From a virus (Duplodnaviria; Heunggongvirae; Uroviricota; Caudoviricetes): a DNA stretch of 64,000 bases. A program made the position numbers and the translations under genes. A model generated the notes under the pieces. That model saw only the letters and a list, made by a program, of their open reading frames with translations. It did not search any database and was not told where the DNA came from. The stretch is taken from IMG/VR virus record IMGVR_UViG_3300033120_000611; one strand, 5' to 3'. Numbering within the stretch: position 1 is the stretch's first letter; every line of letters begins with the position of its first letter. Of this stretch, positions 15,056 to 54,624 are shown piece by piece.

Positions 15056-15057
15056 AG

Positions 15058-15725: not shown

Positions 15726-15736
15726 TATGCTATAAT

Positions 15737-15949: not shown

Positions 15950-15950
15950 T

Positions 15951-17744: not shown

Positions 17745-17776
17745 TGTTGAAAAATTTTGATTAATTAATAAATAGG

Positions 17777-17891
17777 TGGGGATATACCCCGTAGCAAGAT
17801 TTGACGGGGGTAGCAATGAGGAACAGGTTCTATATACCACACGCATGGGGGTATTTTGCTAATAGATAATTTGGACCGGGGTATTGTATAT
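17777..17891. promoter_or_regulatory. divergent switch region with repeated GGGGTAT-type elements (putative operator or iteron sites)
   Basis: Palindrome GGGGATATACCCC (17777-17789), then CGGGGGTAGCAAT, TGGGGGTATTTTGC and CGGGGTATTGTAT, within 115 bp. The region lies between the last minus-strand gene and the first plus-strand genes. Confidence 0.45.
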
Positions 17892-18045
17892 CAGAAGGAA
17901 ATGATTATGTTTGTATAAAATTACAACATGGCTGAACTAAAACATGATTACTTCCTTATAGAGGGAGTTAAGATAGAGATCTACCCGGGTAAGATTCTTA
18001 CTAATCAGGAGGCAGAAATACTTAAAAGATATTTAAAGAAAAATA

Positions 18046-18459
18046 ATGGCTAAACAAAACTACCTAAACTTCGTATTGAACTACGGTGTGTATCCATACG
18101 ATGTTATGTTCTCCTTTGGGGAGACAGATAAGCAACTCTTCTCTAGGTTAGAGAAGGTTGTTCCTGATCAATATAAGGATGATATTAAGCTATGTGCTCT
18201 CAACAATAGAGCAGGCATTTGTATCCAGTTTGGATTTGGAGCAAGTATAATTAGAATGCCTAATATCCCTAAGACTCCCTTTGATCAGGATACCTTAGCA
18301 CACGAGATCTTTCATGCTGTATCCGGTCTCCTTAGAAGGATTGGCCTGGAGCATACATCAGATAGTGAAGAGGCGTATGCCTATGCTATAGGATTCCTAA
18401 CGAAAGGAGCCTATGAAGCGATTGATAAATTCAAAAAGAAAAGGAGAGTAAGGAAATGA
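18046..18459 (+). CDS. putative zinc metallopeptidase-like protein (HExxH motif)
   Basis: 137 aa with LAHEIFHAVSGL (HExxH plus a downstream E in GLEH). First gene of the plus-strand block. Confidence 0.5.
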   Translation: MAKQNYLNFVLNYGVYPYDVMFSFGETDKQLFSRLEKVVPDQYKDDIKLCALNNRAGICIQFGFGASIIRMPNIPKTPFDQDTLAHEIFHAVSGLLRRIGLEHTSDSEEAYAYAIGFLTKGAYEAIDKFKKKRRVRK

Positions 18460-27588: not shown

Positions 27589-28118
27589 TGTTTGACAAAG
27601 TCATAGAATTTCTACTATCGATGTGGAACCACATCATCCCCTTCTATGTAATTGAAGAGGCTAATGAAGCAGTAGTACTAAGACTAGGAAAATTCAAATG
27701 TACCTCAAAGCCAGGCTTCTACTGGAAGATACCATTTGCTGATGTAGTTAAAGAGCATCATGTTGTTTGGCAAACTATAAACTTGCATCCACAATCACTA
27801 ACTACAAAAGATGATAGTGGTATTGTTGTAAAGGCTATAATCAAATTCAAAGTAGGTGATATAAAAGTATTCATACTTGAGGTGTGGGATAGTCCAGATG
27901 CAATCTCTGATATGACTATGGGTATTATCCGGGATGAAGTGATGGAGCATACATGGCAACAGATCAGGGATGGCAAGCTTGATAAAGTTATTAGCCGGAA
28001 GGTAAAGGCTGAAGCTAAGCGCTGGGGAATAGAGGTTGATACTGTAACATTAATTGATATGGCTATCATGCCTTCATTCAGACTATTCAATGAAACCAAA
28101 AATCATATTGTTGATTAG
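27588..28118 (+). CDS. SPFH/band-7 (prohibitin/stomatin-like) domain protein
   Basis: 176 aa with the pattern EANEAVVLRLGKFKCTSKPGFYWKIPFADVV...TKDDSGIVVKAIIKFKV, typical of the SPFH beta-sheet core. It lacks the long C-terminal coiled coil of cellular homologs. Confidence 0.55.
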   Translation: MFDKVIEFLLSMWNHIIPFYVIEEANEAVVLRLGKFKCTSKPGFYWKIPFADVVKEHHVVWQTINLHPQSLTTKDDSGIVVKAIIKFKVGDIKVFILEVWDSPDAISDMTMGIIRDEVMEHTWQQIRDGKLDKVISRKVKAEAKRWGIEVDTVTLIDMAIMPSFRLFNETKNHIVD

Positions 28119-29782: not shown

Positions 29783-31411
29783 ATGGCACTACAGTCAATC
29801 CCTACCTTCAACAGTTATAATAACAATGTCATTGTTAGACAAACTGAGTTCCGTCCTGGACAAATGACCGATGCTAACTCTATATACGCCCTGTTTAATA
29901 GAGATAGATTCAATGTAAATAGAGGAATGATCTCAGCTTGGAACCAAGCTAAGGTACTTCAAACTCCTCTGTTTAACTTAACAGAGGCACAGAACAACAC
30001 AATCTATGTCAATGGTGCTGAAGGCGAATTTGAATTCGCTATGCCATATGTACTAGATTTCCCACGTATCATGGAAGACGTAACAGATCCTCTTGATACT
30101 AAGCCAGGACTTGGTGGAGTTCCATTTGAGATCAAGGTAAACCTTGATGTATACAAGCCGGGTGACCACTTAACTTATGATCGCCTTAACGGGGTACAAG
30201 TAAGGGTAATGAATGTACCAGTAAGACCTGATGGTTCTGGATTCATCCTGACTGTTTCCCTAATTACTTCTGACCAAAAGAAGAAGTATTTCCCTAAGGG
30301 TAAGCTCGCTAATGGTGTACAACTAATTAAGGTTGGACAAGATACTGGTGGTGAGTTTGGTAAGGACTTCTCTAGTATCTCTGATGACACTGGTATGATC
30401 ACCATGCGTCACAGGATTGGTGCTGAGCGTGGTGTAACTGCAGCAATGACTGCATATGCAAACATGCTAGAACTTCCTACCGGATCAAACCCAGGCCTAC
30501 AAAAAGCATTTGCTAAGTATGACCTGCTAGGAAAGCAAGCAGTTGAAACATTTATTCATATTGATGAGAAGACTGGACAAGCAGTTGCTGGTTCAGCAAT
30601 GTGGGCTCCTACTGTACTCTCTCTGATCTTCCAGGAACTAGCTAAGCTAGAAGAAAGTGATCTGATGTGGGGACATGGTGGATTCATCCAAGGAGCAGGT
30701 AATAAGATCGTCATGCTAAGCCCAGGATTCTATCCTCAGCTAAAGAGAGGTCAATACCACAGAATTTCAAGATGGACAAGAGGAGTAGTAGAATCTATAC
30801 TTGGTAACCTGTATTCAGGTACTCTAATTCCTCCTACGGAAAGAAAGACTAAGATCAAGTGCGGTATGGGTGCTCTTACTGAGCTATACAAGATCTTCGC
30901 ACAAGAACTTGCTCAAATACCATTCCTAACAAGAACTGCAGATATTGGTGCTATCACTGGTGATGCAATGAACCTGGCTGTAGCTTATCGTGTTGTAAGC
31001 TTCATGTTCCCTGCAGCTGGTACAGTTACCCTTGAATATGAACCAGCATTTGACTCTTGGAACACTAGAGCTACTGACTCTCCAATGATAGGTATGTATC
31101 CTATCCACTCTTATAGCGCAGCTATTCTTGACGTAACAGATGAGAACTACACTAACGCAACTAAGAAGTCTGATAAGATAATCTATGCTGAGGGAGCTAA
31201 TAAGGCATCTAACGTATTCATGGTTAAGCCAAGCGCTCGTAAGTCTACTACTTGGGGTACTGTAAATGGTACAGAACACATGCTAGGAGAAGCAATGATG
31301 CATGGTATGCAGTCCGCTAACCTTGAGCCAGGATTTACAATCTGGGCAAAGAATCAATCTAGCGTTTGGATTGAGGACCTTACAAGATGCGTACTGATCG
31401 AACTAAGATAA
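29783..31411 (+). CDS. major capsid protein candidate
   Basis: 542 aa in the canonical position after portal and scaffold. Followed by a hairpin terminator. No motif confirmation possible by eye. Confidence 0.5.
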   Translation: MALQSIPTFNSYNNNVIVRQTEFRPGQMTDANSIYALFNRDRFNVNRGMISAWNQAKVLQTPLFNLTEAQNNTIYVNGAEGEFEFAMPYVLDFPRIMEDVTDPLDTKPGLGGVPFEIKVNLDVYKPGDHLTYDRLNGVQVRVMNVPVRPDGSGFILTVSLITSDQKKKYFPKGKLANGVQLIKVGQDTGGEFGKDFSSISDDTGMITMRHRIGAERGVTAAMTAYANMLELPTGSNPGLQKAFAKYDLLGKQAVETFIHIDEKTGQAVAGSAMWAPTVLSLIFQELAKLEESDLMWGHGGFIQGAGNKIVMLSPGFYPQLKRGQYHRISRWTRGVVESILGNLYSGTLIPPTERKTKIKCGMGALTELYKIFAQELAQIPFLTRTADIGAITGDAMNLAVAYRVVSFMFPAAGTVTLEYEPAFDSWNTRATDSPMIGMYPIHSYSAAILDVTDENYTNATKKSDKIIYAEGANKASNVFMVKPSARKSTTWGTVNGTEHMLGEAMMHGMQSANLEPGFTIWAKNQSSVWIEDLTRCVLIELR

Positions 31412-39540: not shown

Positions 39541-40056
39541 ATGGCAGACATAAAACTATTAGCTCCTAAGATTGCCCAGTGGGAGGGAAAATACGTAGAT
39601 GATCCCCTAGACAAGGGTGGAGCAACAAACATGGGAGTTACAATATCTACTTGGCAACAACTTGGGTATGATAAGAACCATGATGGGCACATTGATAAAC
39701 AGGATATCAAACTTCTTGATTATAACGATTTTAGTATTATCTTGCGAAAGTATTGGGATACATGGCAAGCAGATAATATTGTGAATCAGTCTATAGCAAA
39801 TATACTTGTTGACTGGGTCTGGGGATCCGGGAAGTGGGGGATTATTATTCCTCAACGTATACTTGGTGTAGTAGCTGATGGATCAGTAGGACCTAAAACT
39901 ATTGATGCTCTAAACCGGGCTAATCAGGAAATACTATTTAAGTCTATCTTTGCAGCTAGAGTTAAGTTTTTAAATGATATTGTAGCCAATGATCCAAAAC
40001 AGAAGAGATTTCTTCAGGGTTGGATGAATCGGTTAAATTCATTTACCTTTGCATAA
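39541..40056 (+). CDS. endolysin, glycoside hydrolase family 108 N-domain plus peptidoglycan-binding domain
   Basis: N-terminal [21 protein letters not shown] (GH108 pattern EGG-Y--D--D-GG-T--GIT) and C-terminal [14 protein letters not shown] (PG-binding, ADG--GP-T pattern). Confidence 0.8.
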
Positions 40057-40071: not shown

Positions 40072-40602
40072 ATGTTCTTGACAGTCAACCAACTAGAAGA
40101 AGCAGCGCCATACATAGGTTATAAAAGAATCGAGCTAATCCTTCCAAATTTCAATGCTACTTGTGCTAAGTACAAGATCGATAATTATTATCGTATTGCT
40201 CACTTCCTTACTCAGCTTATCGTAGAGTCAAACTATCTTAGGCTTATTCAGGAACCTGGAAATGGGCATGAGTATGAGAGTATAGAAGAGTTAGGTAATA
40301 CCCAAAAAGGAGATGGTAGAAAATATATCTCCCGGGGATATATAAAACTACTCGGAAGAAAGGCCTATGAAGAGTATAGTAAGTTCTCAAGCGTGGATGT
40401 ATTAAACTATCCACACTTTGCAACAACACCTAAGGTTGCAATGGATATCTCTGGATGGCTTTGGGATAGTAACAAACTTAATGAGGCAGCTGATCGTGAT
40501 GATATATTTGAAGTTACCAGGTTACTAACCGGTGGTGAATTTATCATGAGAGAAAGAATGGACGTTCTAGCTAAAGTTAAGAAAGTATTAGGTATAAAGT
40601 AA
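40072..40602 (+). CDS. GH19 chitinase-like lysozyme (second muralytic enzyme)
   Basis: AHFLTQLIVESNYLRLIQEPGNGHEYE...LGNTQKGDGRKYISRGYIKLLGRKAYEEY matches the GH19 lysozyme catalytic core pattern (AAFLAQ--HES-----EE...GN---GDG--YRGRG-IQLTG--NY). Confidence 0.75.
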   Translation: MFLTVNQLEEAAPYIGYKRIELILPNFNATCAKYKIDNYYRIAHFLTQLIVESNYLRLIQEPGNGHEYESIEELGNTQKGDGRKYISRGYIKLLGRKAYEEYSKFSSVDVLNYPHFATTPKVAMDISGWLWDSNKLNEAADRDDIFEVTRLLTGGEFIMRERMDVLAKVKKVLGIK

Positions 40603-40661: not shown

Positions 40662-41282
40662 ATGGCAGGTACTCTTAATATAGACTTCGAAATTCTTGGC
40701 TGCAGTTCTAACTGCAAGTCATTGAGAGTATTAGATCTAACTAACTACGCCAACTATAGTCTTAGTCCAGTTTATATTGATATCATAGCTCCGGGCCTTC
40801 AGTTTCCAACTTCGAGGAATTATCAGAGAAATGCTATCAATACATTCAATACAAATGACCTAGGACTATCAGATGTGACAGACCCGGCATACCTAGGAAA
40901 TATTCCAGATGGAATATACAAGGTATGTGTAAGAGTATTACTGGGCTATGTTTCACCACTAGCTCCGAATGCTACACCTTCTCCAATACAGACATCAGTT
41001 TATACTGATCCTGTATATGCAGATAACTGTAAGTACTGGTTGCAAGATTGTGAATTGAGATGTGCTATAGCTAGGAAGCTTCTATCAGTTGACTTAACAT
41101 GTCAACCATGTAGAAAGACTTTAGTAGTTGATCTACAAGAGATCCAGCTATTCCTGGATGCAGCCCAGGCTCAGGTTGAAAACTGTAATGTCAATAAGGC
41201 AATGGAGTATTTCAGACGTGCTACAAAACTATTAGAAAGACTTACGAACCCATCTAAGGATGGAGGGTGTAAGGATTGTTAA
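40662..41282 (+). CDS. Cys-rich structural protein (fibre or adaptor candidate)
   Basis: 206 aa with 12 Cys, including CELRCAIARK, CQPCRK and a C-terminal GGCKDC. Confidence 0.4.
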   Translation: MAGTLNIDFEILGCSSNCKSLRVLDLTNYANYSLSPVYIDIIAPGLQFPTSRNYQRNAINTFNTNDLGLSDVTDPAYLGNIPDGIYKVCVRVLLGYVSPLAPNATPSPIQTSVYTDPVYADNCKYWLQDCELRCAIARKLLSVDLTCQPCRKTLVVDLQEIQLFLDAAQAQVENCNVNKAMEYFRRATKLLERLTNPSKDGGCKDC

Positions 41283-41300
41283 TGATAAAAACCAAAGATC

Positions 41301-41525
41301 ATGGCAAATTGTTCCCAATGTGGAAAGAATGTAGGTTGCGGATGTAACCTTGTAAATGGCCTCTGTGCCCAATGCAGGAAAGATAATAGAGAGAAGGAGG
41401 TAGGGACTACTCCTCAGACTGCAGAAGTTATTGAACTAAGTCCACAAGTAAAACCGGATCATAGCATTGCTTTACGTAATGCAGCAAGGTCCATAACCCC
41501 AGTTATATTAGGTGCCGCAAGATAA
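41301..41525 (+). CDS. small Cys-rich zinc-ribbon-like protein
   Basis: 74 aa with CSQCGKNVGCGCNLVNGLCAQC at the N-terminus. Confidence 0.4.
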   Translation: MANCSQCGKNVGCGCNLVNGLCAQCRKDNREKEVGTTPQTAEVIELSPQVKPDHSIALRNAARSITPVILGAAR

Positions 41526-41781
41526 TGAAATATGTTCAACTTGTAATATCTGTTCAGATGTTCAGCAATCTCTTCGCGATAAACTAATAGATATCGCTGA
41601 TGCTAAACTATATAATGCAAGGTTTGAGCTTAACCGGTTTGTTGATTTTGAATTGTACCTTTTACTTAGGGCCTATAGTCCTATGGTAAAAAACATATGT
41701 AAAGATATGAACTGTAATTTCTGCTATGGCTGGGATACAGAATCAGTTATAGAACGAGTAAAAATATTAACAGTAGCATGA
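41512..41781 (+). CDS. small Cys-rich protein
   Basis: 89 aa with CSTCNICS...CKDMNCNFC. Confidence 0.4.
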   Translation: MPQDNEICSTCNICSDVQQSLRDKLIDIADAKLYNARFELNRFVDFELYLLLRAYSPMVKNICKDMNCNFCYGWDTESVIERVKILTVA

Positions 41782-42566
41782 GTGTCAAACCTTTAAATTG
41801 TTTTCCAAAGCCACAACAAACTTGTGGTAAAGTAATCCCAGATGCTTGCGTAAGTGTAAGCGCCTGGCCAGATTGCTTTAGGACTCATGATCCAGACTGC
41901 TGCTATCGTCAGATTGACTTCAATGATGAAGCTGGTTATCAGATTTGTTTACTGAAGGGAAGTGTCACAACTATACTGGATAGTATAGATCTAAGTACAC
42001 TAACTGGTTGTACTGCTGGTGAAGGAACTCCTGGCGAAGTAGTTATAACTCCAGTCAAGGGAACTGTGGTAGAAGAGTTTCAAAACATATATGATCTCAT
42101 ATGTGGACTACAAACTAATCTTGATATACCTTTATCTGGTATTGACTTCTCATGTCTTGTAGATAAATGTGGAACACCTATAGGAACCTTAGGACAACTC
42201 CTACAGGCTATGGTTAATCAAGTATGCCAGAATGTAGGAAAAGAATATGTTGTTACTCTTAAACAGAGTGGAACACTTGCACCAGTACCTACTATACTTA
42301 CTGACACACTAGATCTTTCAAGTAACCACTTAGTTTGGAGTTGGAGTGGTACAGGTATTTATGTTTTAACTGCTACTGGTCCATTAGCTGGTATCTTTGC
42401 GAATGATAAGACATTCATACAGATAGGACAGACAGGAGCCGGTACAAATCAAATAACTGCTACTAAAGCTAGCAACAGTACTATTATTATTAATACCACA
42501 GCAGCTGGTACATTAACTAATGGTATTTTAAATGAAACAAGTTTCCTCATTAAAGTATATCCTTAA
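41778..42566 (+). CDS. Cys-rich N-domain plus T/G/S-rich beta C-domain protein (tail fibre-like)
   Basis: 262 aa. The N-terminus is NCFPKPQQTCGK...CVSVSAWPDCFRTHDPDCCY. The C-terminal half is T/G/A/N-rich strands (TGAGTNQITATKASNSTIIINTTAAGTLTNG). Confidence 0.45.
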   Translation: MSVKPLNCFPKPQQTCGKVIPDACVSVSAWPDCFRTHDPDCCYRQIDFNDEAGYQICLLKGSVTTILDSIDLSTLTGCTAGEGTPGEVVITPVKGTVVEEFQNIYDLICGLQTNLDIPLSGIDFSCLVDKCGTPIGTLGQLLQAMVNQVCQNVGKEYVVTLKQSGTLAPVPTILTDTLDLSSNHLVWSWSGTGIYVLTATGPLAGIFANDKTFIQIGQTGAGTNQITATKASNSTIIINTTAAGTLTNGILNETSFLIKVYP

Positions 42567-42568
42567 TC

Positions 42569-43399
42569 ATGTGCTACTCATGCGGTGATCCTTATTGTAC
42601 TGGTAATCCATGTGGTGGATACAGAGGTTATAATAGAATCTATCCAGCTCCATTTAATAGGGAAGTGTGCGGTCCTAATGTGCCACCACGTCCAAATCCA
42701 TGTGTCCCCTGTGGACCATGTAATGATAATGGATGCCTTCAAAGAATAACAACTAATTGTGTCTTCACTGTAAATCCATACTCATGTATAGGATCTGCAG
42801 CAGGAGATCCACTCACAACTGTATTGGCATTAATAAATGCCAAGTGCGAAGCCACGCAAGCTTGCTGCACAACTATAAATAGTCAAGGTCTATTATATAA
42901 CGATAATGAGGTTGAATCATTCGTATACCCCAACCATCCAACATTAGTGAAGTCATTTAATAATGATTACATAACTAATAATGGATTAGTGGTTGGAGAT
43001 ATTATAGAAGTAACAGCATCATTAAAGAGTACTAATGAAGAATCAAGTAATCTAGCGTTTAAGATTTATAATGGTACAACTTTAATATATACTCTACCAA
43101 TACCACTTGTAGTAACTGATGTTCAAGATGTTTATACGTTTAATGCAAGGTTGAATGTCACTAGCACAACATCTGTCAGACTAATAGCAACTGCATCGTA
43201 TCTAGATGATACAGAAAACACATTTGGATCCTCACTTCTTACTTCAACAACTAGAACTGGTGGAGCCTGGAAAAATGCTATTACCGGATTAGACTTTACT
43301 AATCTAACTGTTGCTATAGAGTTAGTACCTAGTGTAAATGAATTAGGTGGTGAGCTAGACGAGTTTATAGTAGAATTCAAAAAGAAATTGATTCCTTAA
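42569..43399 (+). CDS. Cys/Pro-rich N-domain plus beta-rich C-domain protein (receptor-binding candidate)
   Basis: 276 aa. The N-terminus is MCYSCGDPYCTGNPCGG...CGPNVPPRPNPCVPCGPCNDNGC (17 Cys in about 100 aa). The C-terminal part is N/T/S/V-rich. Followed by a terminator. Confidence 0.45.
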   Translation: MCYSCGDPYCTGNPCGGYRGYNRIYPAPFNREVCGPNVPPRPNPCVPCGPCNDNGCLQRITTNCVFTVNPYSCIGSAAGDPLTTVLALINAKCEATQACCTTINSQGLLYNDNEVESFVYPNHPTLVKSFNNDYITNNGLVVGDIIEVTASLKSTNEESSNLAFKIYNGTTLIYTLPIPLVVTDVQDVYTFNARLNVTSTTSVRLIATASYLDDTENTFGSSLLTSTTRTGGAWKNAITGLDFTNLTVAIELVPSVNELGGELDEFIVEFKKKLIP

Positions 43400-43470: not shown

Positions 43471-43872
43471 ATGGCAAAGAAAAGAACATCAGGTAGTAGA
43501 TCAAGAGAGGCCTTCTTAAGAAAGGCCGGGATAGCTTATGCCAAGACCTTAACAGAAAAAGCTACAAAGTGGGAGCTTATCTTTAAGGAGATTCTCGAGC
43601 AGGCTAAGATTCCATATGTTTTCCAATTTCCGATAGTATGCGAACAAAACTTCTTGTATATTGTAGACTTCTATCTACCAACATACAATGTAATATTTGA
43701 GTTGGATGGCGCTCAGCATTCTACTAAGGATGCTATCAAGTATGACAAGGCCAGGACTAAAAGGCTCAATGATATTGGACTTACAGTTAAGCGTATAAGG
43801 AATTCGACTGTACATCTAGTTACTCCTAAACTCATACATAGTTTTCTTGAAACTACAATGTTAAGAAAATAA
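43471..43872 (+). CDS. DUF559/Vsr-like (restriction-endonuclease-fold) nuclease, homing-endonuclease-like
   Basis: 133 aa with the pattern FQFPIV...YIVDFYLP..NVIFELDGAQH....D.AR...L...G..V.RI, matching the DUF559 core (Q-PI--Y--DF-----IIE-DG-QH---D--R---L---G--V-R). Confidence 0.6.
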   Translation: MAKKRTSGSRSREAFLRKAGIAYAKTLTEKATKWELIFKEILEQAKIPYVFQFPIVCEQNFLYIVDFYLPTYNVIFELDGAQHSTKDAIKYDKARTKRLNDIGLTVKRIRNSTVHLVTPKLIHSFLETTMLRK

Positions 43873-43939: not shown

Positions 43940-45082
43940 ATGCCACAAGTAGATTACGTTAGTACGTATTTAACTGAGAATTTTGAAACCATTCAAAAGG
44001 CAAGACAGCTACCGGGCTTCAGCTGGAAGCCTATCGTAGAAGAAATAGTTGCCCTATTTCCACAATCAAAACTAGATCCCACCTATTCAGTACATAGAGA
44101 TAGAGTAAGGAATAACTTCCTACACTTACGTAAACGTAAGAAGGCTGAGAAGCCACTAGAGGCTAGTGTTACTAAGATAACACCAGCTCAACTCTTAAGT
44201 GCTCATAGAACGCCTATTGAGATACCTAAGTACGAATATATTGACACGTACAATAAAAAGAGCTTCACTCCAATCCCGGGTGAGGATCCAGAGTTTACAG
44301 AATGGAAGCTTGAAAAACACAAAGCAAAGCGCCAGGAGGGCATGCACATCGTAATTGGATGTATGCACCTGCCGGCAGTAAACAAACCCTTCTTTGAGGC
44401 CTTTCTGAAGTTCCTGAATGATGCTAGAGATGTTCTTAAGGGTATTCACCTAATAGGAGATATCATAGATTGCAAATCCCTATCTCAGCATGATAATGGC
44501 CAGGTGTCTGATATTACTCTGGATCAGGAGTATAAGGAATCAAATATCTATCTTGATCGTATTGATGCCCTACTTAGACCAGGTGTGGAGAAGAATTATA
44601 TATGGGGTAACCATGAGCAGAGATACGAGAGGATTATAAAGAAGGTTGACATCTCAAAGTTCGGCCGGGCCTTACTATCTCCTACAGAGGGGTGTAGGTT
44701 TGCCCAGAGAGGATATACAATCCAGGAAGACTATCAGAATGGTAAGATACAGCTTGGTAAACATCTAGATCTAGTTCACGGTCAATACATTACGCAGAAC
44801 TCTGCTAAGAAACATCTAGATGTCTATAAGAAGTCTATTATGTTTGCCCACACCCATAAGATGGGAGCTCACTTTGATGGTGACAAAGCTTCCTTTAACA
44901 TTGGTTGGATGGGAGATAAAGACAACTCAGCCTTTAGTTACTCTAGCAGGATCACTAAGTCTCAATGGCAGAATGGTTTCGCAGTTGTTAATATCGATAG
45001 TGATGGAGTATATCATACACAGCTAGTCCAGTGGTATAATGATAAGTTCGTCTTTGGAACTATGATATACGATGGAAAATAA
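43940..45082 (+). CDS. calcineurin-like metallophosphoesterase with an N-terminal extension
   Basis: 380 aa. Motifs in order: GCMHLP, GDIID (GDxxD), GNHE, VHGQ, and FAHTH (GHxH-like). Confidence 0.7.
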   Translation: MPQVDYVSTYLTENFETIQKARQLPGFSWKPIVEEIVALFPQSKLDPTYSVHRDRVRNNFLHLRKRKKAEKPLEASVTKITPAQLLSAHRTPIEIPKYEYIDTYNKKSFTPIPGEDPEFTEWKLEKHKAKRQEGMHIVIGCMHLPAVNKPFFEAFLKFLNDARDVLKGIHLIGDIIDCKSLSQHDNGQVSDITLDQEYKESNIYLDRIDALLRPGVEKNYIWGNHEQRYERIIKKVDISKFGRALLSPTEGCRFAQRGYTIQEDYQNGKIQLGKHLDLVHGQYITQNSAKKHLDVYKKSIMFAHTHKMGAHFDGDKASFNIGWMGDKDNSAFSYSSRITKSQWQNGFAVVNIDSDGVYHTQLVQWYNDKFVFGTMIYDGK

Positions 45083-45480: not shown

Positions 45481-46173
45481 ATGCCAATCACAATTAGACA
45501 GGCCATAAGCCAAATCCAAACCGACCTTAAATCCACAATGGATACCCGGATAGCTCCTAAAGCTATCTGGAATAAGTATGTCTTTAACCTGGCCAGCATC
45601 CTTAAACAAGTTAATGAGACTAGACGAGTTTGGAAATCTTCTGACGTCTGGCAGAAGATCCATTGTTTAGAAATGGAGACTGTTCCTGCTACAGATTGTA
45701 GTGAGATAGCGCCTCTAGTCAAAGAATATATATCCAAGAGTAGGCTAAAGATTCCTGCTACTTATACCTCAGCTGCCGGTGATATGATCCGGGATATAAA
45801 CTCTATCTTCCCATATGGTAAAGAGTATCGCTTAGTAACTCCAAAGGAGTACAAGAAGATTAGGGAAAGAGAATTTCAGAATAAGAAAATTGGTTACGCT
45901 TTTATCATAGATAACTATCTCTATCTACCAGACTCAGAGATAGAGAAAGTAGCTGTGACTGGAGCATTTATAAATCCAAAAGAAGTAGGAATACTGAATG
46001 GTGATGAACCATGTAAGCCCTTCCTTGATTACCAATTCTACATGCCGGAGTATCTAATAAAGGTGGCCCATGATATGGTACTTCAAGATCTAGCTTCTGT
46101 AAATCAGAAGGTTGTGAAGGATGAGGATACAGATCTAAACGAGAATTCAAGAGGACAACAACCAACAAAATAA
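45481..46173 (+). CDS. hypothetical protein
   Basis: 230-aa ORF. Confidence 0.45.
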   Translation: MPITIRQAISQIQTDLKSTMDTRIAPKAIWNKYVFNLASILKQVNETRRVWKSSDVWQKIHCLEMETVPATDCSEIAPLVKEYISKSRLKIPATYTSAAGDMIRDINSIFPYGKEYRLVTPKEYKKIREREFQNKKIGYAFIIDNYLYLPDSEIEKVAVTGAFINPKEVGILNGDEPCKPFLDYQFYMPEYLIKVAHDMVLQDLASVNQKVVKDEDTDLNENSRGQQPTK

Positions 46174-46655
46174 TGCCGGCAAAGAATAGTATAGGAAAGT
46201 TTCATGGTAGACATCCATTCATCGAGAAGAAGCTCTGGAAGAAATATGTGAAGCAGACTGAGAATCCAGTTAGCTATGAAGAGTTTAAACTAATCATAGC
46301 AGCATCTCTGCAAGAATTACAATCCTGGGTCCTGAAGGATCCAATAGGTTTTCAATTCTCACCAAAGCTTGGCCGGATAGCTATAAATAAATTTAAGATG
46401 TATGAAGGATTCAAAACCTTTATACATAAAAAAGGAATTGGTCGTATACAGAATCATAATCTTCACTCTGATGAGCATGCATTCAAAATACAATGGTTTC
46501 ACTCTCAGACCTCACATAAGAGTAGGATGCCATACTGGTTCTTTAGAGCTGAGAGATCTTTTAACCGAGATCTTGCCAGGGTACTAAAAGGAGGTAAAGC
46601 TCCGGAATTTAATTCCTTTATGCAAGATCACTTTGTACAAAAACTACCTAGTTAA
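46173..46655 (+). CDS. hypothetical protein
   Basis: 160 aa; start overlaps the previous stop. Confidence 0.45.
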   Translation: MPAKNSIGKFHGRHPFIEKKLWKKYVKQTENPVSYEEFKLIIAASLQELQSWVLKDPIGFQFSPKLGRIAINKFKMYEGFKTFIHKKGIGRIQNHNLHSDEHAFKIQWFHSQTSHKSRMPYWFFRAERSFNRDLARVLKGGKAPEFNSFMQDHFVQKLPS

Positions 46656-47548
46656 TGGATATTATAAACTTCATTTCATCTGATAGGTTACTATCCCAGA
46701 TACAGGAGGACTTATCTTCTTATGATGCTAATAATCAATTAGATCCTGGAAGATGGTATGACTTTATCAAGAAGATTGTATCTGATCTTGGTATCTATTG
46801 CTATGAACGTAAATATGAACTAGTATGGTTAAAAAACTCTACCGGTAAGTTACCATGTAACTTTCAAGTACTGGATAGTGCATTCATGGTTAGTACAACT
46901 GAATGTCTAAATGGTTGTCCTCCAGGTGAAGGTCCACTTCACTTCCAGGGAAAGAGTATAATCTGGAATGATACTACTACTGCCTGTGCATTCCAAGACA
47001 CTAAGTGTAATGAGGGATGTGAGGATTATAGAACATGTACTGTCAATTCATTTCAAGAAATTACCGTCAGGGAGTATGTTCGTGGCTTACCTTATACCTA
47101 TTCTTTACCTCTCATATATCCTCTACACATCAATAGAAGGAATTCTAAAAGTTGGTGCCTTCCTCATTCAATATGTTTTGGATCTAAAGCAAAGGATGAG
47201 ATAAGCATAGCTAATGGAACTGTATACACTAACTTTGATGAAGGTGTTGTACTTCTTAACTACTACGCGTATCCATACGATGATGAGGGCCTTCCTATGA
47301 TCCCGGACAATCCAAAGATACAATTAGCTGTAGAACAATATATAAAATGGAAAGCATTTGAGATACTATGGACTAATGGTGATGATGCTGGGGCACAATC
47401 TAAGATGCTATACTTTAAGAACGAATTTCAAACAACTTCATATCCGGATGCTGAGTATTATGTCAAGCTGACATCTATGAGTGATATGATGAACATGGCT
47501 AGAACTAATAGGAGACGCCTTAGTATCTACCAACTTATACAAAAGTAA
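46655..47548 (+). CDS. Cys-rich hypothetical structural protein
   Basis: 297 aa with CLNGCPPGEG...CAFQDTKCNEGCEDYRTC. Its start overlaps the previous stop, and its stop abuts the giant gene. Confidence 0.45.
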   Translation: MDIINFISSDRLLSQIQEDLSSYDANNQLDPGRWYDFIKKIVSDLGIYCYERKYELVWLKNSTGKLPCNFQVLDSAFMVSTTECLNGCPPGEGPLHFQGKSIIWNDTTTACAFQDTKCNEGCEDYRTCTVNSFQEITVREYVRGLPYTYSLPLIYPLHINRRNSKSWCLPHSICFGSKAKDEISIANGTVYTNFDEGVVLLNYYAYPYDDEGLPMIPDNPKIQLAVEQYIKWKAFEILWTNGDDAGAQSKMLYFKNEFQTTSYPDAEYYVKLTSMSDMMNMARTNRRRLSIYQLIQK

Positions 47549-50500
47549 ATGGCCAAGAAAGAACCAAATATTCCTATAGCTGGGATGGTGGATGTACACC
47601 CAATGAATATAAAGGATAATCAATATCCTCTTATGTTGAATGGTAATATACAGACAGATATCAGCTCAGGAATTACTCTTACTAACGAACACTCTAATCT
47701 GCTCTGCAATAACTTGCCGGCGGGATACTCTCTTATTGGATCTCTATTTGTTCCAGGAGATAATATTACATACGTATGGCTTGTAAATAGAGATAATAAT
47801 AAATCTCAGATTGGGTACCTATCGGAATATATTCTAGATGAGGACCAAGACGAGTATATCGATAATACATGTAATGAGTGTGTAAAGAAAAAGCAAGAGG
47901 CTATCCCACTGGAAAAGAGGGATCAGTCTGAGCTATGTCAATACACATGTATCTCTGCAGCAGATTGCCTTGCTTTTAATATAGACTTCCCTGTAAGGAA
48001 AGCTGTTATAAAGAAGGATAATTGTGGTGATACTCTATATTTTACTGACTTCCTTAATCCAGTTAGGGCTCTTAAGCTTACACTAGACCATAAGATTGAC
48101 GATACTCAACGTACTGTTATAACTCCAGCTACATGTGATGATCCGGCTGTATATGCATCATACTGCAGTTATAATGACCTTGACTGTATTCAGATACTCC
48201 TATTCCCACAAGCTAATCACATAGGAGTCACACCAGAGTTAATATCATCTGGTGGAACTCTACGTGCCGGGACATACCAGCTAGCTGTAGCTTATGCTAC
48301 TAAGGATGGCCATAGAGCTACAAGGACATTCTCTGTATCTAATCCAGTTAGTATATTTGATCCTCATCAAACGGTTACAAGCCAGCTAGATTATACAACA
48401 GACCTATCTATCAAATTTCTAATAGAGAATCTTGATAATAAAGAGTATAGATTTATTGATGTATTTGTAATAGCTACTATCAATAGAGTTGGATCGGTTA
48501 AGCAATATGGTCCCATAGATATAAGCGCTGTTAAAGATGGAACTCTTGAGTATAGAGTTTCAGACTTTGAAAAGGGAATGGATGTATCCATAGATGATGT
48601 TTTCCAGAACTTCCCTATATATGAGAAAGCTCAGGAGATTACATCTGCAGGTGACACACTACTATTAGGTAATCTCACTGGCCCCCGAGATCTCAATCTA
48701 CAAAGAGCTGTTAATAATCTATCTCCTACTGTGAGATGGTCTACCGCAGAAGCTCCAGAGGATATATATGCTGATGGTATAGCTGATGCTAATTCTCGTG
48801 GTTATCTTAGAGATGAGGTATATCCATTAGGAATAGTTTTCGAAAGAAACAACACTCAATATACATGCGCCTTTCCTCTAATAGGAAGGGATATAGATGT
48901 TGTATTCTGGCCTGAAACTCAAGGACCTGATGTACTTCCAGATGGAACTAATATTTTATTCAGGGGTATATGGAACCAATATCTAGCTGCAAATGGTGGT
49001 TATGATACTGGATCTATAGTTACTTACAATGGAGACTACTACGTAAGTACAGCTGATAATAATGGTAATATTCCTGGTGGCCCAGATTGGAGTAGCATCA
49101 CTGCTGGTGATCCTATCTACTTCTATAGTACCGGATCATTTAGTGATATATCTACAGTTAATGGGGCTGATGCATTTCAGTATCCTGGATGTGCTAGTGA
49201 CCCTGATTATAACTTAAGATGGAAGGTATATAACACAGCTAATAATTTAGGGCAGCTTCCTTGCACAACAGCTATCAATAGTGGATTAAGTTGCGTCTTA
49301 AAGACTGTCCATATAGGTTGCTCATCATATACATTTAAGTCATCTACATTACTATTAGAATCTCAAACTGGGGATTTTGTAGTTGGAGATGTATTAACTG
49401 GATCTGGTGGTGTAGGAACTATCCTATCCATTTCACAGCAACATGGTCTAATACCATATGTCACACTTGATACGACTACTATTACTGGTGGCTCTTCTGC
49501 ATTCGCTAATGGAGATAATATAACTGGTAGCATTAGTGGAGCTACAGCTACAGTGTCTATATTTAACTTAGGAGACACTCCACCTAATGACTGCTACATT
49601 TCATCAACTGATACTGGAGATTGCGCTACTAACTATCCAACTCCATATGATGATCCATCACTAGCTCCAAGTGATCCACTTTGCTCAGACCCAAATCCAG
49701 ATCCACAACCAAAGAAGGATCCAGATTGTAATACCCCTAATGTAAGACCTCAATCATTAGCTGCATCTTCTGGTATTTTGTGTGTTGATGGCCAGTTACT
49801 TGAGTACCCAAATAACTTAAGTGAGCCATATGCGTATAGGACTTCTTTTAAACAGAAGGAAGTTATACCTCTTCAAACTAATGATTACTATGTATATAAT
49901 CTTAGTAGATTAATTACTGCAGTTCCAACTCCACCATCACCAACCCCAACTCTATCCGGAGGACCGTTTGAAGGTAGTATCCCAAGACTAGCTACAAATA
50001 ATGGTACTTGGATCTGGCCTGGTGGAAACTTTAGTCCTACACCAATTAATAACTTATCAACTCAATCCCTACAGGTTCCACCTATAACAGAGAATCAGGG
50101 TTGCTCAGAATATAATAGTACTACTCTTGCAACAATAAATGTTGTTGGTGATGGACCTAGATACTTTCTAGGTGATTCAATAGATCCTCCAGTTGGTAGT
50201 ACTGGATGTTCATTCTGTAGTACTGGATGTTCTGGTGACTTTAGTGATTGCGATCCTATTGCACCAGCATCAGATTACTGGGGTATAGGTGCTCAGACAT
50301 TTATAGGAACAACTGACAGAAATACGACTGGATATCAAAGTAGATGGTATAAGATAAATGCCACTACTCCTTCAATGATAATCAAGATGAAGCTTGGATT
50401 TTCTGATTCTACAACGTTTGCAGATGGAGATCTAAGAATAGATGTATATGCTGGAAATCCATTTGGTATTCCAGTTTATTCAACAGGTACAGATTCAGTC

Positions 50501-53500
50501 TCTCCTGCTGACTATTGCTATACTGCCGGCGGTACGGTTGATACTGGAGTTCTTGTAATAGGAGATGTAGCTGGATCTGTTACTACAACTACACATAATG
50601 GAGCAACACTTCCACAAGAACCACTAATACAAGGTCTTGATTATTATATTCATATATATCTGCTTCCAGCAGGTACAGCTAAACTAAATGGTCCAGCTTA
50701 CTATAACTGTTACCATGATGGTGCAAGTACAACTAGCCCGGCTAGTAAAGCTACCACATGTTACCTAGTTCGTTATGCATGGGCTAACTTCTGTATTGAA
50801 TATCCTACAGCCAGTACAACTAAGACTGTTACTACACCTGCGATTAGTTCAATGAGTTGTGAGTACGATATCATTTATAGAATAAAAGAGGTCCCTAATG
50901 TTGCTTGTAATCTAAGTCCATTTGAATATGGTAACTTTGCTTTCTGGCAATCAGAGACTAAAACATATCCACAAAACCCAGAAGTATGGGGAGAAATGTG
51001 TGGAAAACAGATTAGGCACTTTAAGTTCCCAGACTGTCTGGTATCTTATCTTCAAGATGAAGATCAGATAAATCTTGGAGTAGCCGGTGGAGATTCTGGA
51101 TACACTGCTAACAATGCTCGTAAGGCTAGAGTATATCCTATGGGGTGGAAGATTGATCCAGAGGATGTTAAGGCCTGGCTAGTATGGGCTGTAAGTGAAG
51201 GTCTTATTACTGAGTCTGAGAGACTATCTATTACAGGTTATAAACTCGTTAGAGGTAATAGAGTTGGTAATAAATCGATACAAGCTAAGGGACTACTATA
51301 TGATATGTTCCGGTACAAGCAAAGAGATTGGGTGAATGGAACATTTTCTAATATACCATACTACTTTGCTAACTATCCATTTAATGACCTAAGGCCAGAT
51401 CCATATCTTTCAGAGAGTGGACTTGGTGCTATCCAAGCTCCTGAGAATGGAGCTGGTAATAGTAAGTATGCATTCCTATCACCTGATACGACTTTTAATT
51501 CTCCTACCTTAGGAACTGAATTAAAGCTTGAAGCAGCTAACTTTGGTGATAGTCTCGGACAGTTCTATGAAGTACTTAACCATCCTAAGTGGGTTCTACT
51601 TGGTAATGGAGGTATTATACTAGTAGGTGTATTAGCTGGTATACAACTAAGCGCTGACCTACTTGTTCTTCTTGGACAGCTATATGGTACTCAGATCGTT
51701 GGTTTAGCAGATAGTATACCTACAGGATTTATTATAGGGCTTGTTGGTGGTATATTGAATCTAGTTCCGAATCTATTCAAGTACATGCATGACTGGAATA
51801 CTCTAATAACAAACTTTGGAGTTCCATTTAACTTTGCTAGATACTATGCTGCAGTAGGTAACTACCATAGCTCAGGTATAACTGGACAGATACTAAATGA
51901 TGCTTCCAATAAGAGAAGACCCATAGGAACCTATAGCTATCTACTATCAGGTAATATAAGCCTATCTAGTAGTGGTGTCCTGGAAAGGATTAATAACTAT
52001 GAGAGAGAGGACTCAGTATATATAGATCTTGGGGATCTAAGCCAGGGATTTGTATATGCAAGTACAGCCATAGATAGAGCTGTAAAGGGAGATTTTAGTA
52101 AGTTTACTCTTACAGCTAGTACAAGTAACAATGGCCCGGGATGTAGCATGACTGATAGGGGAGGAACAGTGGCATCATTATATGCTTCTATCAAGAGTAG
52201 TGTTCCAGACCAGTATGGGTCTATACAAGATATACAGTGGCTATTCACCGGTAAGTATGTAGCTATAGATTGGGATAGTCAACAAGCAGAGCAATGTGAT
52301 CCTATCTATGGTGGTGATACATTTATATCAAGAATGACTCAGAAGAGAAAGCTTCCATTCTTCCTTGATAATCCTGTTGGTGTTGATACAAGTGTAGATT
52401 TCCAATATCAACATTTAAGTAATATCACTGATGCTAACTTCTTTGTTAACTCTGTTGGTGAGTCTAGCCTTAACTCTAGCGCAATCCAGTTTAAAACTGT
52501 AGAGCATAATCTACAATATTGCGGAGCTGGATCTGGAGATGGAAAGATCTATATCAAGGGATATATGTATCTATTCTCTTACGGAATAGTTTCGTTCATT
52601 GGCGAATCTGATTTCAATCTGAACTTCAGGTACGCTGAAGATACTAAGTTCAGAGACTTCTACCCACATAATAGTGACGTAGAAAACTGGACTCAGGAAT
52701 ACCGTATACCAATAGAAACTCCCAATGCGTATTTATACAATAGAGATTACTCTAAGCAAAATACAGAGAATGTCTTCTGTACACAGCCGGTGATATACCA
52801 TAATGATGATTGTAACTTCATGTATAAGAATAGAATAATCAATTCTATAACTGATACTGATTCAGACTTCTACATGGATAACTGGAGAATATTTTTAGCA
52901 GAGGATAAGAAGGATTTTGATCTAGTAAATGGTCAGCTTACTGGTCTAGATGGTATAGAGAGGGAGAAGGTATTAGTAAGATTTGGAAATACGTATAATA
53001 TATTCAATGCCTTTTATACTATTGATACTGGACAAGGTACTGCTCAAATAGGCACTGGATCTATGTTCGCTCAGAAGCCTGAGGAGTATGCTAAGACAGA
53101 ACTTGGATATGGTGGAACAGAACACCATGCTTTTGCATCAACTCAGTTTGGACACTTCTGGGTGGATGCTAGAAGAAGTTCTGTATTCATGTTACCTCCC
53201 GGATCTGGAGCTGCAGAGGAAATATCATCTAGTTATAATAACTTCTTTAATAATAACCTACCATTTTATATATTAAAGGATTTCCCTCAGTACAATGTGG
53301 ATAATAACTATAAGGATATAGGTATAACTTTAGTATGGGATAATAGGTTTGACAGACTAATACTCACAAAGCTAGATTATGCATTAAGGTCATTTTATAG
53401 AAATAAGATAACTTATGACGGGTCTAATTTCCTACTTGATGGAACTATAGTGCAACTGACTGATGAAGAGTACTTTTGTAATAAGTCATGGACAATAGGA

Positions 53501-54202
53501 TACTCTCCTTTAACCAAGTCATGGATAGGGTTCTACTCATTTGTTCCAAACTATTATATCAGCTATGAGAATTACTTTCAATCTGGAGTTAACTCTGTAA
53601 GGCCGGGAGCAGATAGGATTGGTATATGGAATCACCTTATTACTAACAAATCATACCAGGTTTATTACGGCACCCTATATCCTTTCATAACTGATGTAGT
53701 AGTGAAGGACCAGCTAGTTAACAAGCAATTACAATCCATAGAATACCAAGCAGACTTTTTAAGGTTTCAAGATGACTTTGATTATTTTTACAATCCTGGA
53801 GTTACTTTCAACAAGATGGTCATCTGGTCTGAGAACCAAAATTCTGGCGTACTTAACCTTGTACCTCAGGTACCGAACGACCTTAGTCAAGCTGTACGCT
53901 ACCCAATGTACAATTCTGGTTCCACTACTATTATGGTAACTAGGAAAGAGAATAGTTGGAGAGCCAATCAGTTCTCGGATATAGTAGCTGATAAGTATAG
54001 TAATGTGCCACCAATGATCTTAGGTTGTCATCCATACCTCAAAGAGGTAAATATGAATGCTGTCAATTATAATAAGCCTACGTTCCAAAGAAGTAGATTT
54101 ACTTCAGACTACTTTACTCTAAGATTGATAAATGATCAGTACAGTAACTATAAAATAATCGATAAGTGGTTCTTATCAAATAACATCATATCAACAACAT
54201 AA
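47549..54202 (+). CDS. giant virion protein (2217 aa): G/T/S/N/Y- and Cys-rich, with an internal ~60-aa hydrophobic TM-like segment; tail, muzzle or ejection (cargo) protein candidate
   Basis: Single uninterrupted ORF. Extracellular-type composition and a Pro/Asp-rich linker (CSDPNPDPQPKKDPDCNTPN). A hydrophobic block WVLLGNGGIILVGVLAGIQLSADLLVLLGQLYGTQIVGLADSIPTGFIIGLVGGILNLVPNLF maps to about 51586-51780. No RNAP-type DxDGD motif found. Confidence 0.6.
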   Translation: MAKKEPNIPIAGMVDVHPMNIKDNQYPLMLNGNIQTDISSGITLTNEHSNLLCNNLPAGYSLIGSLFVPGDNITYVWLVNRDNNKSQIGYLSEYILDEDQDEYIDNTCNECVKKKQEAIPLEKRDQSELCQYTCISAADCLAFNIDFPVRKAVIKKDNCGDTLYFTDFLNPVRALKLTLDHKIDDTQRTVITPATCDDPAVYASYCSYNDLDCIQILLFPQANHIGVTPELISSGGTLRAGTYQLAVAYATKDGHRATRTFSVSNPVSIFDPHQTVTSQLDYTTDLSIKFLIENLDNKEYRFIDVFVIATINRVGSVKQYGPIDISAVKDGTLEYRVSDFEKGMDVSIDDVFQNFPIYEKAQEITSAGDTLLLGNLTGPRDLNLQRAVNNLSPTVRWSTAEAPEDIYADGIADANSRGYLRDEVYPLGIVFERNNTQYTCAFPLIGRDIDVVFWPETQGPDVLPDGTNILFRGIWNQYLAANGGYDTGSIVTYNGDYYVSTADNNGNIPGGPDWSSITAGDPIYFYSTGSFSDISTVNGADAFQYPGCASDPDYNLRWKVYNTANNLGQLPCTTAINSGLSCVLKTVHIGCSSYTFKSSTLLLESQTGDFVVGDVLTGSGGVGTILSISQQHGLIPYVTLDTTTITGGSSAFANGDNITGSISGATATVSIFNLGDTPPNDCYISSTDTGDCATNYPTPYDDPSLAPSDPLCSDPNPDPQPKKDPDCNTPNVRPQSLAASSGILCVDGQLLEYPNNLSEPYAYRTSFKQKEVIPLQTNDYYVYNLSRLITAVPTPPSPTPTLSGGPFEGSIPRLATNNGTWIWPGGNFSPTPINNLSTQSLQVPPITENQGCSEYNSTTLATINVVGDGPRYFLGDSIDPPVGSTGCSFCSTGCSGDFSDCDPIAPASDYWGIGAQTFIGTTDRNTTGYQSRWYKINATTPSMIIKMKLGFSDSTTFADGDLRIDVYAGNPFGIPVYSTGTDSVSPADYCYTAGGTVDTGVLVIGDVAGSVTTTTHNGATLPQEPLIQGLDYYIHIYLLPAGTAKLNGPAYYNCYHDGASTTSPASKATTCYLVRYAWANFCIEYPTASTTKTVTTPAISSMSCEYDIIYRIKEVPNVACNLSPFEYGNFAFWQSETKTYPQNPEVWGEMCGKQIRHFKFPDCLVSYLQDEDQINLGVAGGDSGYTANNARKARVYPMGWKIDPEDVKAWLVWAVSEGLITESERLSITGYKLVRGNRVGNKSIQAKGLLYDMFRYKQRDWVNGTFSNIPYYFANYPFNDLRPDPYLSESGLGAIQAPENGAGNSKYAFLSPDTTFNSPTLGTELKLEAANFGDSLGQFYEVLNHPKWVLLGNGGIILVGVLAGIQLSADLLVLLGQLYGTQIVGLADSIPTGFIIGLVGGILNLVPNLFKYMHDWNTLITNFGVPFNFARYYAAVGNYHSSGITGQILNDASNKRRPIGTYSYLLSGNISLSSSGVLERINNYEREDSVYIDLGDLSQGFVYASTAIDRAVKGDFSKFTLTASTSNNGPGCSMTDRGGTVASLYASIKSSVPDQYGSIQDIQWLFTGKYVAIDWDSQQAEQCDPIYGGDTFISRMTQKRKLPFFLDNPVGVDTSVDFQYQHLSNITDANFFVNSVGESSLNSSAIQFKTVEHNLQYCGAGSGDGKIYIKGYMYLFSYGIVSFIGESDFNLNFRYAEDTKFRDFYPHNSDVENWTQEYRIPIETPNAYLYNRDYSKQNTENVFCTQPVIYHNDDCNFMYKNRIINSITDTDSDFYMDNWRIFLAEDKKDFDLVNGQLTGLDGIEREKVLVRFGNTYNIFNAFYTIDTGQGTAQIGTGSMFAQKPEEYAKTELGYGGTEHHAFASTQFGHFWVDARRSSVFMLPPGSGAAEEISSSYNNFFNNNLPFYILKDFPQYNVDNNYKDIGITLVWDNRFDRLILTKLDYALRSFYRNKITYDGSNFLLDGTIVQLTDEEYFCNKSWTIGYSPLTKSWIGFYSFVPNYYISYENYFQSGVNSVRPGADRIGIWNHLITNKSYQVYYGTLYPFITDVVVKDQLVNKQLQSIEYQADFLRFQDDFDYFYNPGVTFNKMVIWSENQNSGVLNLVPQVPNDLSQAVRYPMYNSGSTTIMVTRKENSWRANQFSDIVADKYSNVPPMILGCHPYLKEVNMNAVNYNKPTFQRSRFTSDYFTLRLINDQYSNYKIIDKWFLSNNIISTT

Positions 54203-54624
54203 TGGAAAGCAAACCTAAACTGGTATTAAAGCTACCAGAAGTAAAAGAAGGAACTCCATCTGCATTTATTAACTGCATATTGACTAGTGCAGTCATAGTG
54301 CATCAAATGCATCTAAGCGTGGAAGGACCATCTGCTTATGAAAAGCACAAAGCTTTAAATGATCTATATGAAGCATTACCGGATCATGCAGATTCTATTG
54401 CTGAAGCATACCAGGGACATAAGGGAATTATAATAAAACCCTATCCAAGTATGGATCAAACAAAGTACATGAATATGGATCCACTACAGTTTGTTGAATG
54501 GTTACTTAATTATGTTGAGAACACAAGAGGGTCTATGGGAACTGTATCGATGATACAAAATTTAATAGATGAACTTGTACAATCAATAGCATCAACCAGA
54601 TACAAACTGAAATTTTTGAAATAA
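54202..54624 (+). CDS. small helical protein with weak Dps/ferritin-like four-helix-bundle resemblance
   Basis: 140 aa. VHQMHLSVEGPSAYEKHKALNDLYEAL...DSIAEA loosely follows the Dps pattern (FHW-V-G--F---H-LFEE-Y-EL---D-IAE). Start overlaps the giant gene's stop. Confidence 0.35.
   Translation: MESKPKLVLKLPEVKEGTPSAFINCILTSAVIVHQMHLSVEGPSAYEKHKALNDLYEALPDHADSIAEAYQGHKGIIIKPYPSMDQTKYMNMDPLQFVEWLLNYVENTRGSMGTVSMIQNLIDELVQSIASTRYKLKFLK

Follow-up and report, generated by a model that had tools for sequence, protein, structure and literature searches.

A run of cysteine-rich genes next to the tail barrel genes of a crAss-like phage

We analyzed a 64,000-nucleotide stretch of viral DNA (IMG/VR record IMGVR_UViG_3300033120_000611; hereafter the window) that contains five adjacent plus-strand genes, here designated P1 to P5, whose products are dense in cysteine (Cys). 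All five open reading frames (ORFs) lie where a sequence-only reading of this DNA had placed them, and every Cys motif quoted in that reading is present in the encoded proteins. The cluster consists of P1 (40662-41282; 206 amino acids (aa), 11 Cys, 5.3% Cys), P2 (41301-41525; 74 aa, 6 Cys, 8.1%), P3 (41512-41781; 89 aa from a GTG start, 6 Cys, 6.7%), P4 (41778-42566; 262 aa, 12 Cys, 4.6%) and P5 (42569-43399; 276 aa, 14 Cys, 5.1%), with overlaps between the P2/P3 and P3/P4 genes. Across the 59 genes tabulated in the window, Cys content averages 1.21%, compared with 4.6-8.1% for P1-P5, which make up 5.5% of the residues yet contain 49 of the 199 Cys.

Judged by its gene content, the window belongs to a crAss-like podovirus that is a divergent, environmental relative of gut crAssphage. 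The contig that carries it is 126,993 bp long, and no nucleotide similarity of the window DNA to deposited phages was found. Pfam identified the Crass_capsid protein at 29783-31411 and, downstream of the cluster on the plus strand, two tail barrel proteins: ring protein 2 (R2; 45481-46173, CrAss_Ring_2, E 2e-16) and ring protein 1 (R1; 46655-47548, 297 aa, CrAss_Ring_1, E 4.8e-21). The following plus-strand gene (47549-54202) encodes a 2217-aa protein with 40 Cys, which we take to be a muzzle homologue from its position after R1 and from a weak, collinear BLASTP match to gp44 of PhicrAss001 (N-terminal E 5e-5, C-terminal E 0.011). An annotated muzzle protein also directly follows R1 in PhicrAss001 and in csAssE-Sib.

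Conservation of the cluster and of its cysteines

P1 has 24 homologues with 43-56% identity, on contigs of up to 137 kb, and ten related crAss-like loci were retrieved for comparison. The gene order lysin-P1-P2-P3-P4-P4b-P5-DUF559-...-R2-x-R1-muzzle is kept in these 10 loci. P4b, a Cys-rich paralogue of P5 (185-254 aa), lies between P4 and P5 in 9 of 9 relatives and is missing from the window, where P4 and P5 are only 2 bases apart (42566-42569). In alignments of the protein families, built from 8-24 related phages per protein, Cys columns had mean identities of 0.91-1.00, versus 0.32-0.53 for other columns. Because the Cys columns are so much more conserved than the rest, the enrichment appears to be selected rather than compositional.

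A separate group of Cys-rich genes was seen in csAssE-Sib (OR575929, 47838-49295; L012:3729-5186), an epsilon crAss-like gut phage, in which four consecutive small ORFs with 3.1-8.5% Cys lie between the reverse transcriptase of a diversity-generating retroelement and a BACON tail protein, with the ring proteins further downstream. These four ORFs and P1-P5 showed no similarity in BLAST. A literature search found no paper on Cys-rich proteins of crAss-like phages.

P1 resembles the tail hub protein THA

In PhicrAss001, twelve A2B hubs composed of THA (gp38) and THB (gp39) ring R1 and R2, and the hub collar docks the N-terminus of the fiber protein gp22 (Bayfield et al. 2023, Nature; PDB 7QOJ; PMC10172136). 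Disulfide bonds connect one hub with another and the hubs with the ring proteins, and R1 is likewise linked with R2 (PMC10172136). The genes are ordered gp38 (THA), gp39 (THB), gp40 (R2), an endonuclease and an IHF-like gene, gp43 (R1) and gp44 (muzzle), and gp38 has the highest Cys content of its structural module. P1 occupies the equivalent place in the window, within the tail module and upstream of R2 (45481), R1 (46655) and the muzzle gene (47549). In size and composition it is close to gp38 (206 versus 215 aa; 5.3 versus 5.1% Cys). The sequence-only reading had considered such Cys density out of the ordinary for phage structural proteins, a view to which gp38 is already a counterexample.

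The structure model of P1, built from 24 sequences, reached a predicted local distance difference test (pLDDT) score of 86.3 and a predicted template modeling (pTM) score of 0.78. It consists of a beta-sandwich (residues 1-128) and a three-helix bundle (residues 130-195), the same two-domain arrangement of beta-sandwich and C-terminal helical bundle as in gp38. In both families, the helix motif N-x3-A-x2-Y-[WF] is invariant and a pair of Cys lies at the C-terminus. Ten of the 11 Cys of P1 are conserved or nearly so, including C147xxC150 and the C-terminal C203xxC206; the C-terminal CxxC tail was modeled with low confidence (pLDDT 52-72) and is not packed against C147/C150. We call P1 THA-like because of its modeled fold, genome context and composition: it is most likely a THA-like fiber-docking hub subunit, a name that does not imply membership in the Pfam family crAss_THA.

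Annotation by sequence was uninformative for the cluster, with no Pfam match to P1-P5 and only weak matches among PHROGs. PDB sequence searches with P1, whether as a single sequence or a profile, returned only TPR-like noise on the last helices, and pattern scans of IMG/VR for relatives of P1 and P4 found none. On a human fecal contig (MT838154; L018:2152-3810), the last 200 aa of a 292-aa protein match the P1 family (hidden Markov model (HMM) E 1.5e-23), preceded by an extra N-terminal segment of ~90 aa. An 80-aa P3-like ORF and an 86-aa P4-N-like ORF follow this gene. The HMM of the P4 N-terminal module matched the latter weakly (E 0.0026); the P3 profile did not detect the former, whose resemblance is by eye only. 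These matches extend at least P1 and the N-terminal part of P4 to gut phages. A transitive link from P1 to THA through this contig was considered and dropped, as its P1-like protein has no crAss_THA match either.

P4 and P5 are built from two modules

P4 combines a Cys-rich N-module (residues 1-152; 41778-42233, plus strand), a coil with three helices and 11 conserved Cys, with a C-module (residues 153-262; 42234-42566, plus strand) that forms a beta-sandwich head domain found on many phage tail fiber-type proteins. In the AlphaFold2 model (80 sequences; pLDDT 84.2), the helices span residues 45-69, 97-110 and 138-151, and the beta-sandwich at 155-262 has pLDDT values above 93. The union of a Cys-rich N-domain with a beta-strand C-domain, as proposed in the sequence-only reading, is borne out for P4 by this model. 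The N-module, which is confined to this phage lineage and presumed to attach to the hub, is 34-51% identical to its counterparts in 9 relatives; in three of these, P4 has only 150-168 aa and no C-module.

Searched exhaustively with HMMER, the P4 profile matched 947 representative clusters (counted at 50% identity), which split cleanly into two groups. About 25 clusters, from crAss-like relatives, match positions 1-140 only, corresponding to the Cys-rich N-module. More than 900 match only positions ~140-251, in every case at the very C-terminal end of a protein of 109-863 aa. Among the long carriers that were sampled, the preceding regions included GDSL esterase and BppL_N domains and PHROG tail fiber, minor tail and virion protein regions. 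The C-module thus sits where fiber heads are located, at the C-terminus of proteins with tail fiber shafts or enzymes, and its modeled fold is compatible with a fiber-head jelly roll, although not conclusively so. A PDB sequence search with P4 returned nothing meaningful.

Comparable domains are the trimeric jelly-roll heads of PRD1 P5, TNF/C1q-like proteins, BclA and phage receptor-binding proteins. The P4 C-module, too, is modeled as a compact ~110-residue beta-sandwich that ends its protein, and it is elsewhere fused to tail fiber shafts, esterases and BppL_N. It differs from those heads in having no family name and in that many of its carriers are stand-alone proteins of 110-160 aa. The sole characterized carrier comes from a phage of Flavobacterium (Bacteroidota), elemo, whose 157-aa protein QMP85235 (annotated DUF285) has 31% identity to P4 residues 114-261 (E 6e-13). 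This protein is encoded just after an endolysin, and a neighboring ORF shares its N-terminal motif. This protein differs from P4 in lacking a Cys-rich N-module, in having no Cys in the aligned linker and in belonging to a non-crAss podovirus. The distribution of the P4 head across these phages suggests horizontal exchange. The link to elemo is also the only hint at the hosts of the lineage, which are probably Bacteroidota.

In elemoF (L019:5962-7641), adjacent proteins of 157 and 398 aa both open with MA[KR]IKTY..D..[LI]IG[TS]D...TKN. Residues 114-150 of P4 align to this opening, which may therefore serve fiber attachment generally in Bacteroidota phages.

P5 follows the same plan. Its Cys-rich and Pro-rich N-module (residues 1-105; 42569-42883, plus strand), with the motifs MCxxC...C and PCxxCxxCxxxxC, recurs at 31-46% identity in 8 loci, where it begins proteins of 245-444 aa. 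It is common to the second F0 gene of every relative, and 12 of its 13 Cys columns are invariant. The C-terminal part (residues 106-276; 42884-43399, plus strand) is rich in Thr, Asn and Ser and poor in Cys. It was found nowhere else: a search of 5.8 billion clusters returned only P5 itself, and phmmer against all ORFs of the retrieved loci returned nothing. In the relatives, the N-module is followed by other, unrelated C-termini, and this part of P5 reads as an exchangeable or orphan distal domain. A PDB sequence search with P5 gave nothing meaningful.

The P5 N-module HMM also matched the N-terminus of an 814-aa protein of the crAss-like Leptolyngbya phage Lbo-JY46 (E 1e-6), encoded next to an annotated tail fiber gene. 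Pfam had no match to this protein, and no paper on Lbo-JY46 was found in a literature search.

Comparison of the locus across relatives supports the modularity that the sequence-only reading had suggested, with N-modules of P4 and P5 conserved and C-modules variable, absent or orphan. Receptor-binding proteins are classically built this way, from an anchor that stays conserved and a distal part that can be replaced. The notion of a modular host-recognition locus therefore stands for the modular build of P4 and P5, with host recognition itself only probable.

P2 and P3 are small, conserved partners

P2 homologues (43-74 aa) lie between the P1 and P3 homologues in 8 related loci. Six Cys, arranged as C-x2-C-x5-C-x-C-x6-8-C-x2-C within the first 25 residues, are invariant in all of them and are followed by a charged, variable tail. 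No knottin family matched P2 in Pfam or PHROGs, where its closest hit was a weak match to phrog_15412 (E 0.0017). The P3 family (88-138 aa) is conserved directly upstream of P4 in 10 loci and carries CxxCxxC at the N-terminus, C-x4-C-x2-C toward the C-terminus and a conserved ending, E..ER.KILT; by eye, its sequence looks helical. All that P3 has in common with gp39 is its small size, a location following the hub gene and a pair of Cys around residues 63-71. The identification of P3 with THB was tried and rejected after Pfam and hhalign comparisons failed, and is retained only as a positional guess, which leaves P3 as a candidate, unproven second hub subunit.

Disulfides or metal sites

The Cys content is 0-0.5% in the capsid protein, in two large proteins that are putatively cargo, and in a 959-aa protein tentatively taken to be the portal purely from its size and position. 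Since the capsid, portal and cargo are Cys-poor, the enrichment is confined to external tail parts near the hub, and this restriction fits cross-links that matter outside the cell. The two putative cargo proteins (54746-58216, 1156 aa; 58282-59997, 571 aa) are encoded downstream of the muzzle gene, at the position of the PhicrAss001 cargo genes; both contain zero Cys and had no Pfam or PHROG match.

R1 itself is part of the enrichment. An alignment of the window protein with 6 relatives and PhicrAss001 gp43 placed two inserts absent from gp43 at residues ~80-135 and 165-175, with 8 Cys conserved in 7 of 7 family members. Together with the 40 Cys of the muzzle homologue, these inserts account for the Cys-rich segments that the sequence-only reading had noted in the 297-aa and 2217-aa proteins.

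On our analysis, disulfides within and between subunits, formed on or after release, are the most likely mechanism, and some CxxC pairs may instead be structural zinc sites. Disulfides, seen by cryo-EM, are the only chemistry experimentally documented in the homologous assembly of PhicrAss001. The earlier proposal that the proteins are stabilized by disulfides or metal is plausible, and for disulfides this is a direct precedent (PMC10172136); the choice between the two is one that we infer.

It is possible, at odds that we consider well short of even, that the conserved Cys mainly coordinate metals while the proteins keep the same structural roles. Structural zinc would then occupy CxxC...CxxC knuckles, or an iron-sulfur cluster would form at CxxCxxCxxxxC of P5, and such sites would let the small modules fold in a reducing cytoplasm and would stiffen the hub-fiber junction. 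CxxC pairs are indeed frequent: P1 has C147xxC150 and C203xxC206, P2 has CxxC...CxC...CxxC, P3 has CxxCxxC and Cx4CxxC, and P5 has MCxxC and PCxxCxxCx4C. The iron-sulfur cluster of the phage lambda tail-tip protein gpL provides a precedent, as proteins of this type likewise place conserved Cys clusters in an external tail part assembled in the cytoplasm; no sequence or fold link to them was found, and their Cys pattern differs. No zinc-finger, zinc-ribbon or iron-sulfur family matched in Pfam or the PDB (for zinc-binding families, no Pfam match at E<=0.1; no PDB sequence match for P1, the P3 family, P4 or P5), and the labels "knottin" and "zinc ribbon", which neither family nor fold searches supported, remain pattern-level guesses from sequence. 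Spacing also speaks for disulfides in P4, whose Cys are 7-20 residues apart with few CxxC, and the C-terminal CxxC of P1, modeled with low confidence, is not packed against C147/C150. The PhicrAss001 structure paper reports disulfides and never mentions zinc (PMC10172136).

A further alternative, which we regard as unlikely and somewhat more so than metal coordination, concerns only P2, P3 and perhaps the N-module-only P4 proteins. These would be cytoplasmic zinc-binding assembly chaperones or regulators rather than virion components. Fiber chaperone genes classically adjoin fiber genes, and P2 and P3 are very small (43-138 aa), carry CxxC-type motifs and match no structural family, with P3 failing all THB tests. 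Against this, both are strictly conserved and translationally coupled by overlaps inside a block of structural genes, a P3-like ORF (by eye) also follows the THA-like gene on the distant gut contig, and the PhicrAss001 hub needs a small second subunit. Finally, that the Cys richness reflects composition or chance in unrelated hypothetical or miscalled ORFs, for which the sole argument is the lack of Pfam family annotation, is already refuted by the conservation data and has a negligible probability: each of five neighboring genes has a Cys content 4-7 times the average of the window, all five have orthologues that agree in order and length in up to 10 loci, conservation is 91-100% in Cys columns versus 32-53% in the others, and two of the proteins (P1 and P4) gave confident models.

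A proposed hub-fiber junction

We consider it probable that, in this divergent environmental crAss-like podovirus (~127-kb genome), the cluster encodes a fiber-docking collar or hub module together with small modular fiber proteins. P1 would be the counterpart of PhicrAss001 THA and form a docking hub around R1/R2. P4, P5 and, in relatives, P4b would be short modular fiber proteins whose Cys-rich N-modules plug into or beside the hub. Their C-terminal domains, a widespread beta-sandwich in P4 and an orphan in P5, would be exchangeable distal heads that probably bind receptors. P2 and P3 would be small obligatory accessory subunits of the junction, perhaps a functional analogue of THB or assembly factors. 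The invariant Cys would lock the hub-fiber junction, with a probable contribution from the two lineage-specific Cys-rich inserts of R1. The sequence-only reading had cast all five proteins as adhesins of the virion. As tail proteins rather than cytoplasmic regulators, at least P1, P4 and P5 fit this description, with their presence in the virion being what we infer; as adhesins, the label does not suit P1, which is hub-like by fold, or P2 and P3, which have no fiber features.

Several results weigh against this assignment. None of the 24 P1 family members matched the Pfam family crAss_THA (PF25724), even at E<=10, whereas gp38 itself, as a control, scores 282 bits. With profiles built from 8-9 Steigviridae phages, hhalign gave E 0.027 for P1 against gp38 alone and E 0.2 against the 9-member THA profile, an alignment that is sensible yet non-significant, and a Foldseek search with the P1 model did not rank gp38. 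P3 showed no similarity to THB, either by Pfam PF25711 or by hhalign against gp39 and the 8-member THB profile, so the A2B hub composition is not reproduced. Cys-mediated fiber docking is without precedent, because the docking N-terminus of gp22 is free of Cys. Furthermore, phage proteins fold in the reducing cytoplasm, where virions are also assembled, which would favor metal sites at CxxC pairs, at least initially.

The differences from PhicrAss001 go beyond the lack of detectable sequence homology between P1 and THA (Pfam, hhalign) and of a detectable THB homologue. Four more Cys-rich genes, or five in the relatives, follow the hub gene. The putative fibers are encoded next to the hub gene, unlike the PhicrAss001 fiber, whose gene lies between those for portal and capsid. 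The N-termini of P4 and P5 are Cys-rich, in contrast to the Cys-free helix by which gp22 docks, and R1 of the window has its extra Cys-rich inserts relative to gp43.

A more far-reaching version, which we offer tentatively and think improbable, is that every hub-attached fiber (P4, P4b and P5) docks through a dedicated Cys-rich N-terminal plug, and that plugs, THA, the obligatory six-Cys mini-proteins P2 and P3, and the Cys-rich R1 inserts together form a covalent or metal-clustered lattice. If true, this would be a docking chemistry not seen in PhicrAss001 or other podoviruses, and C-terminal heads would be swappable on a standard "cysteine connector".

Neighboring genes and other features of the window

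The cluster is flanked upstream by a lysin with GH108 and PG_binding_3 domains (39541-40056; Pfam) and a second lysin-like gene (40072-40602), for which the Glyco_hydro_19 match is weak and sub-threshold (Pfam). At its other end lies a DUF559 endonuclease of the Vsr/PD-(D/E)xK-like type (43471-43872, plus strand; Pfam DUF559, E 2.5e-12), so that a Vsr-like endonuclease gene sits within a structural operon. The sequence-only reading had these flanks right, except in likening the nuclease to a homing endonuclease. Orthologues with 44-53% identity occur at the same position in 9 of the 9 loci that reach it, and their divergence among loci is similar to that of the neighboring genes. This fixed position is unlike that of a sporadic homing endonuclease, and we rejected the homing-endonuclease reading.

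A second variable slot lies at the upstream edge of the cluster, in the gap that separates the hub gene from the second lysin. It holds unrelated insertions in relatives (L001:7596-8921, 441 aa; L005:1529-4193, 774 and 101 aa; L009:9631-9999, 122 aa) and none in the window. Pfam gave no matches to the variable neighbor genes. The metallophosphoesterase encoded at 43940-45082 in the window has 380 aa; its homologue at L009:16984-19161 has 725 aa, with an insert of ~300 aa, without a Pfam match, that parts the conserved halves. Its placement suggests an intein or an inserted domain.

Elsewhere, an SPFH/Band-7 domain protein (27588-28118) is encoded within the head-gene block, and a DUF5856/ferritin-like protein (54202-54624) directly after the muzzle gene. 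Genes lie on the minus strand from 541 to 17846 and on the plus strand from 18046, and both GC and AT skew change sign there, marking ~17846-18046 as a divergent transcription or replication boundary.

Implications for Crassvirales

Crassvirales are among the most abundant phages known, and to our knowledge their adsorption apparatus has been characterized in essentially one virus. A Cys-rich hub was already known from PhicrAss001. New are the extent of the Cys network, which spans five to six consecutive genes and the R1 inserts, the Cys-rich fiber N-termini and a widespread, unnamed C-terminal fiber domain that, with more than 900 clusters, would merit a family definition. The hub appears recognizable by fold where sequence models fail, and this extends annotation to crAss-like contigs of ~104-137 kb from environmental and other metagenomes. 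Within the locus, the C-modules of P4 and P5 are the likeliest determinants of host specificity, and the N-terminal connector may be reusable. The coordinated gain, across the lineage, of invariant Cys in the hub, its small partners, the fiber N-termini and R1 suggests that the tail junction is cross-linked to an unusual degree. If confirmed, this would be relevant to how stable particles are outside the host and to the engineering of exchanged fibers.

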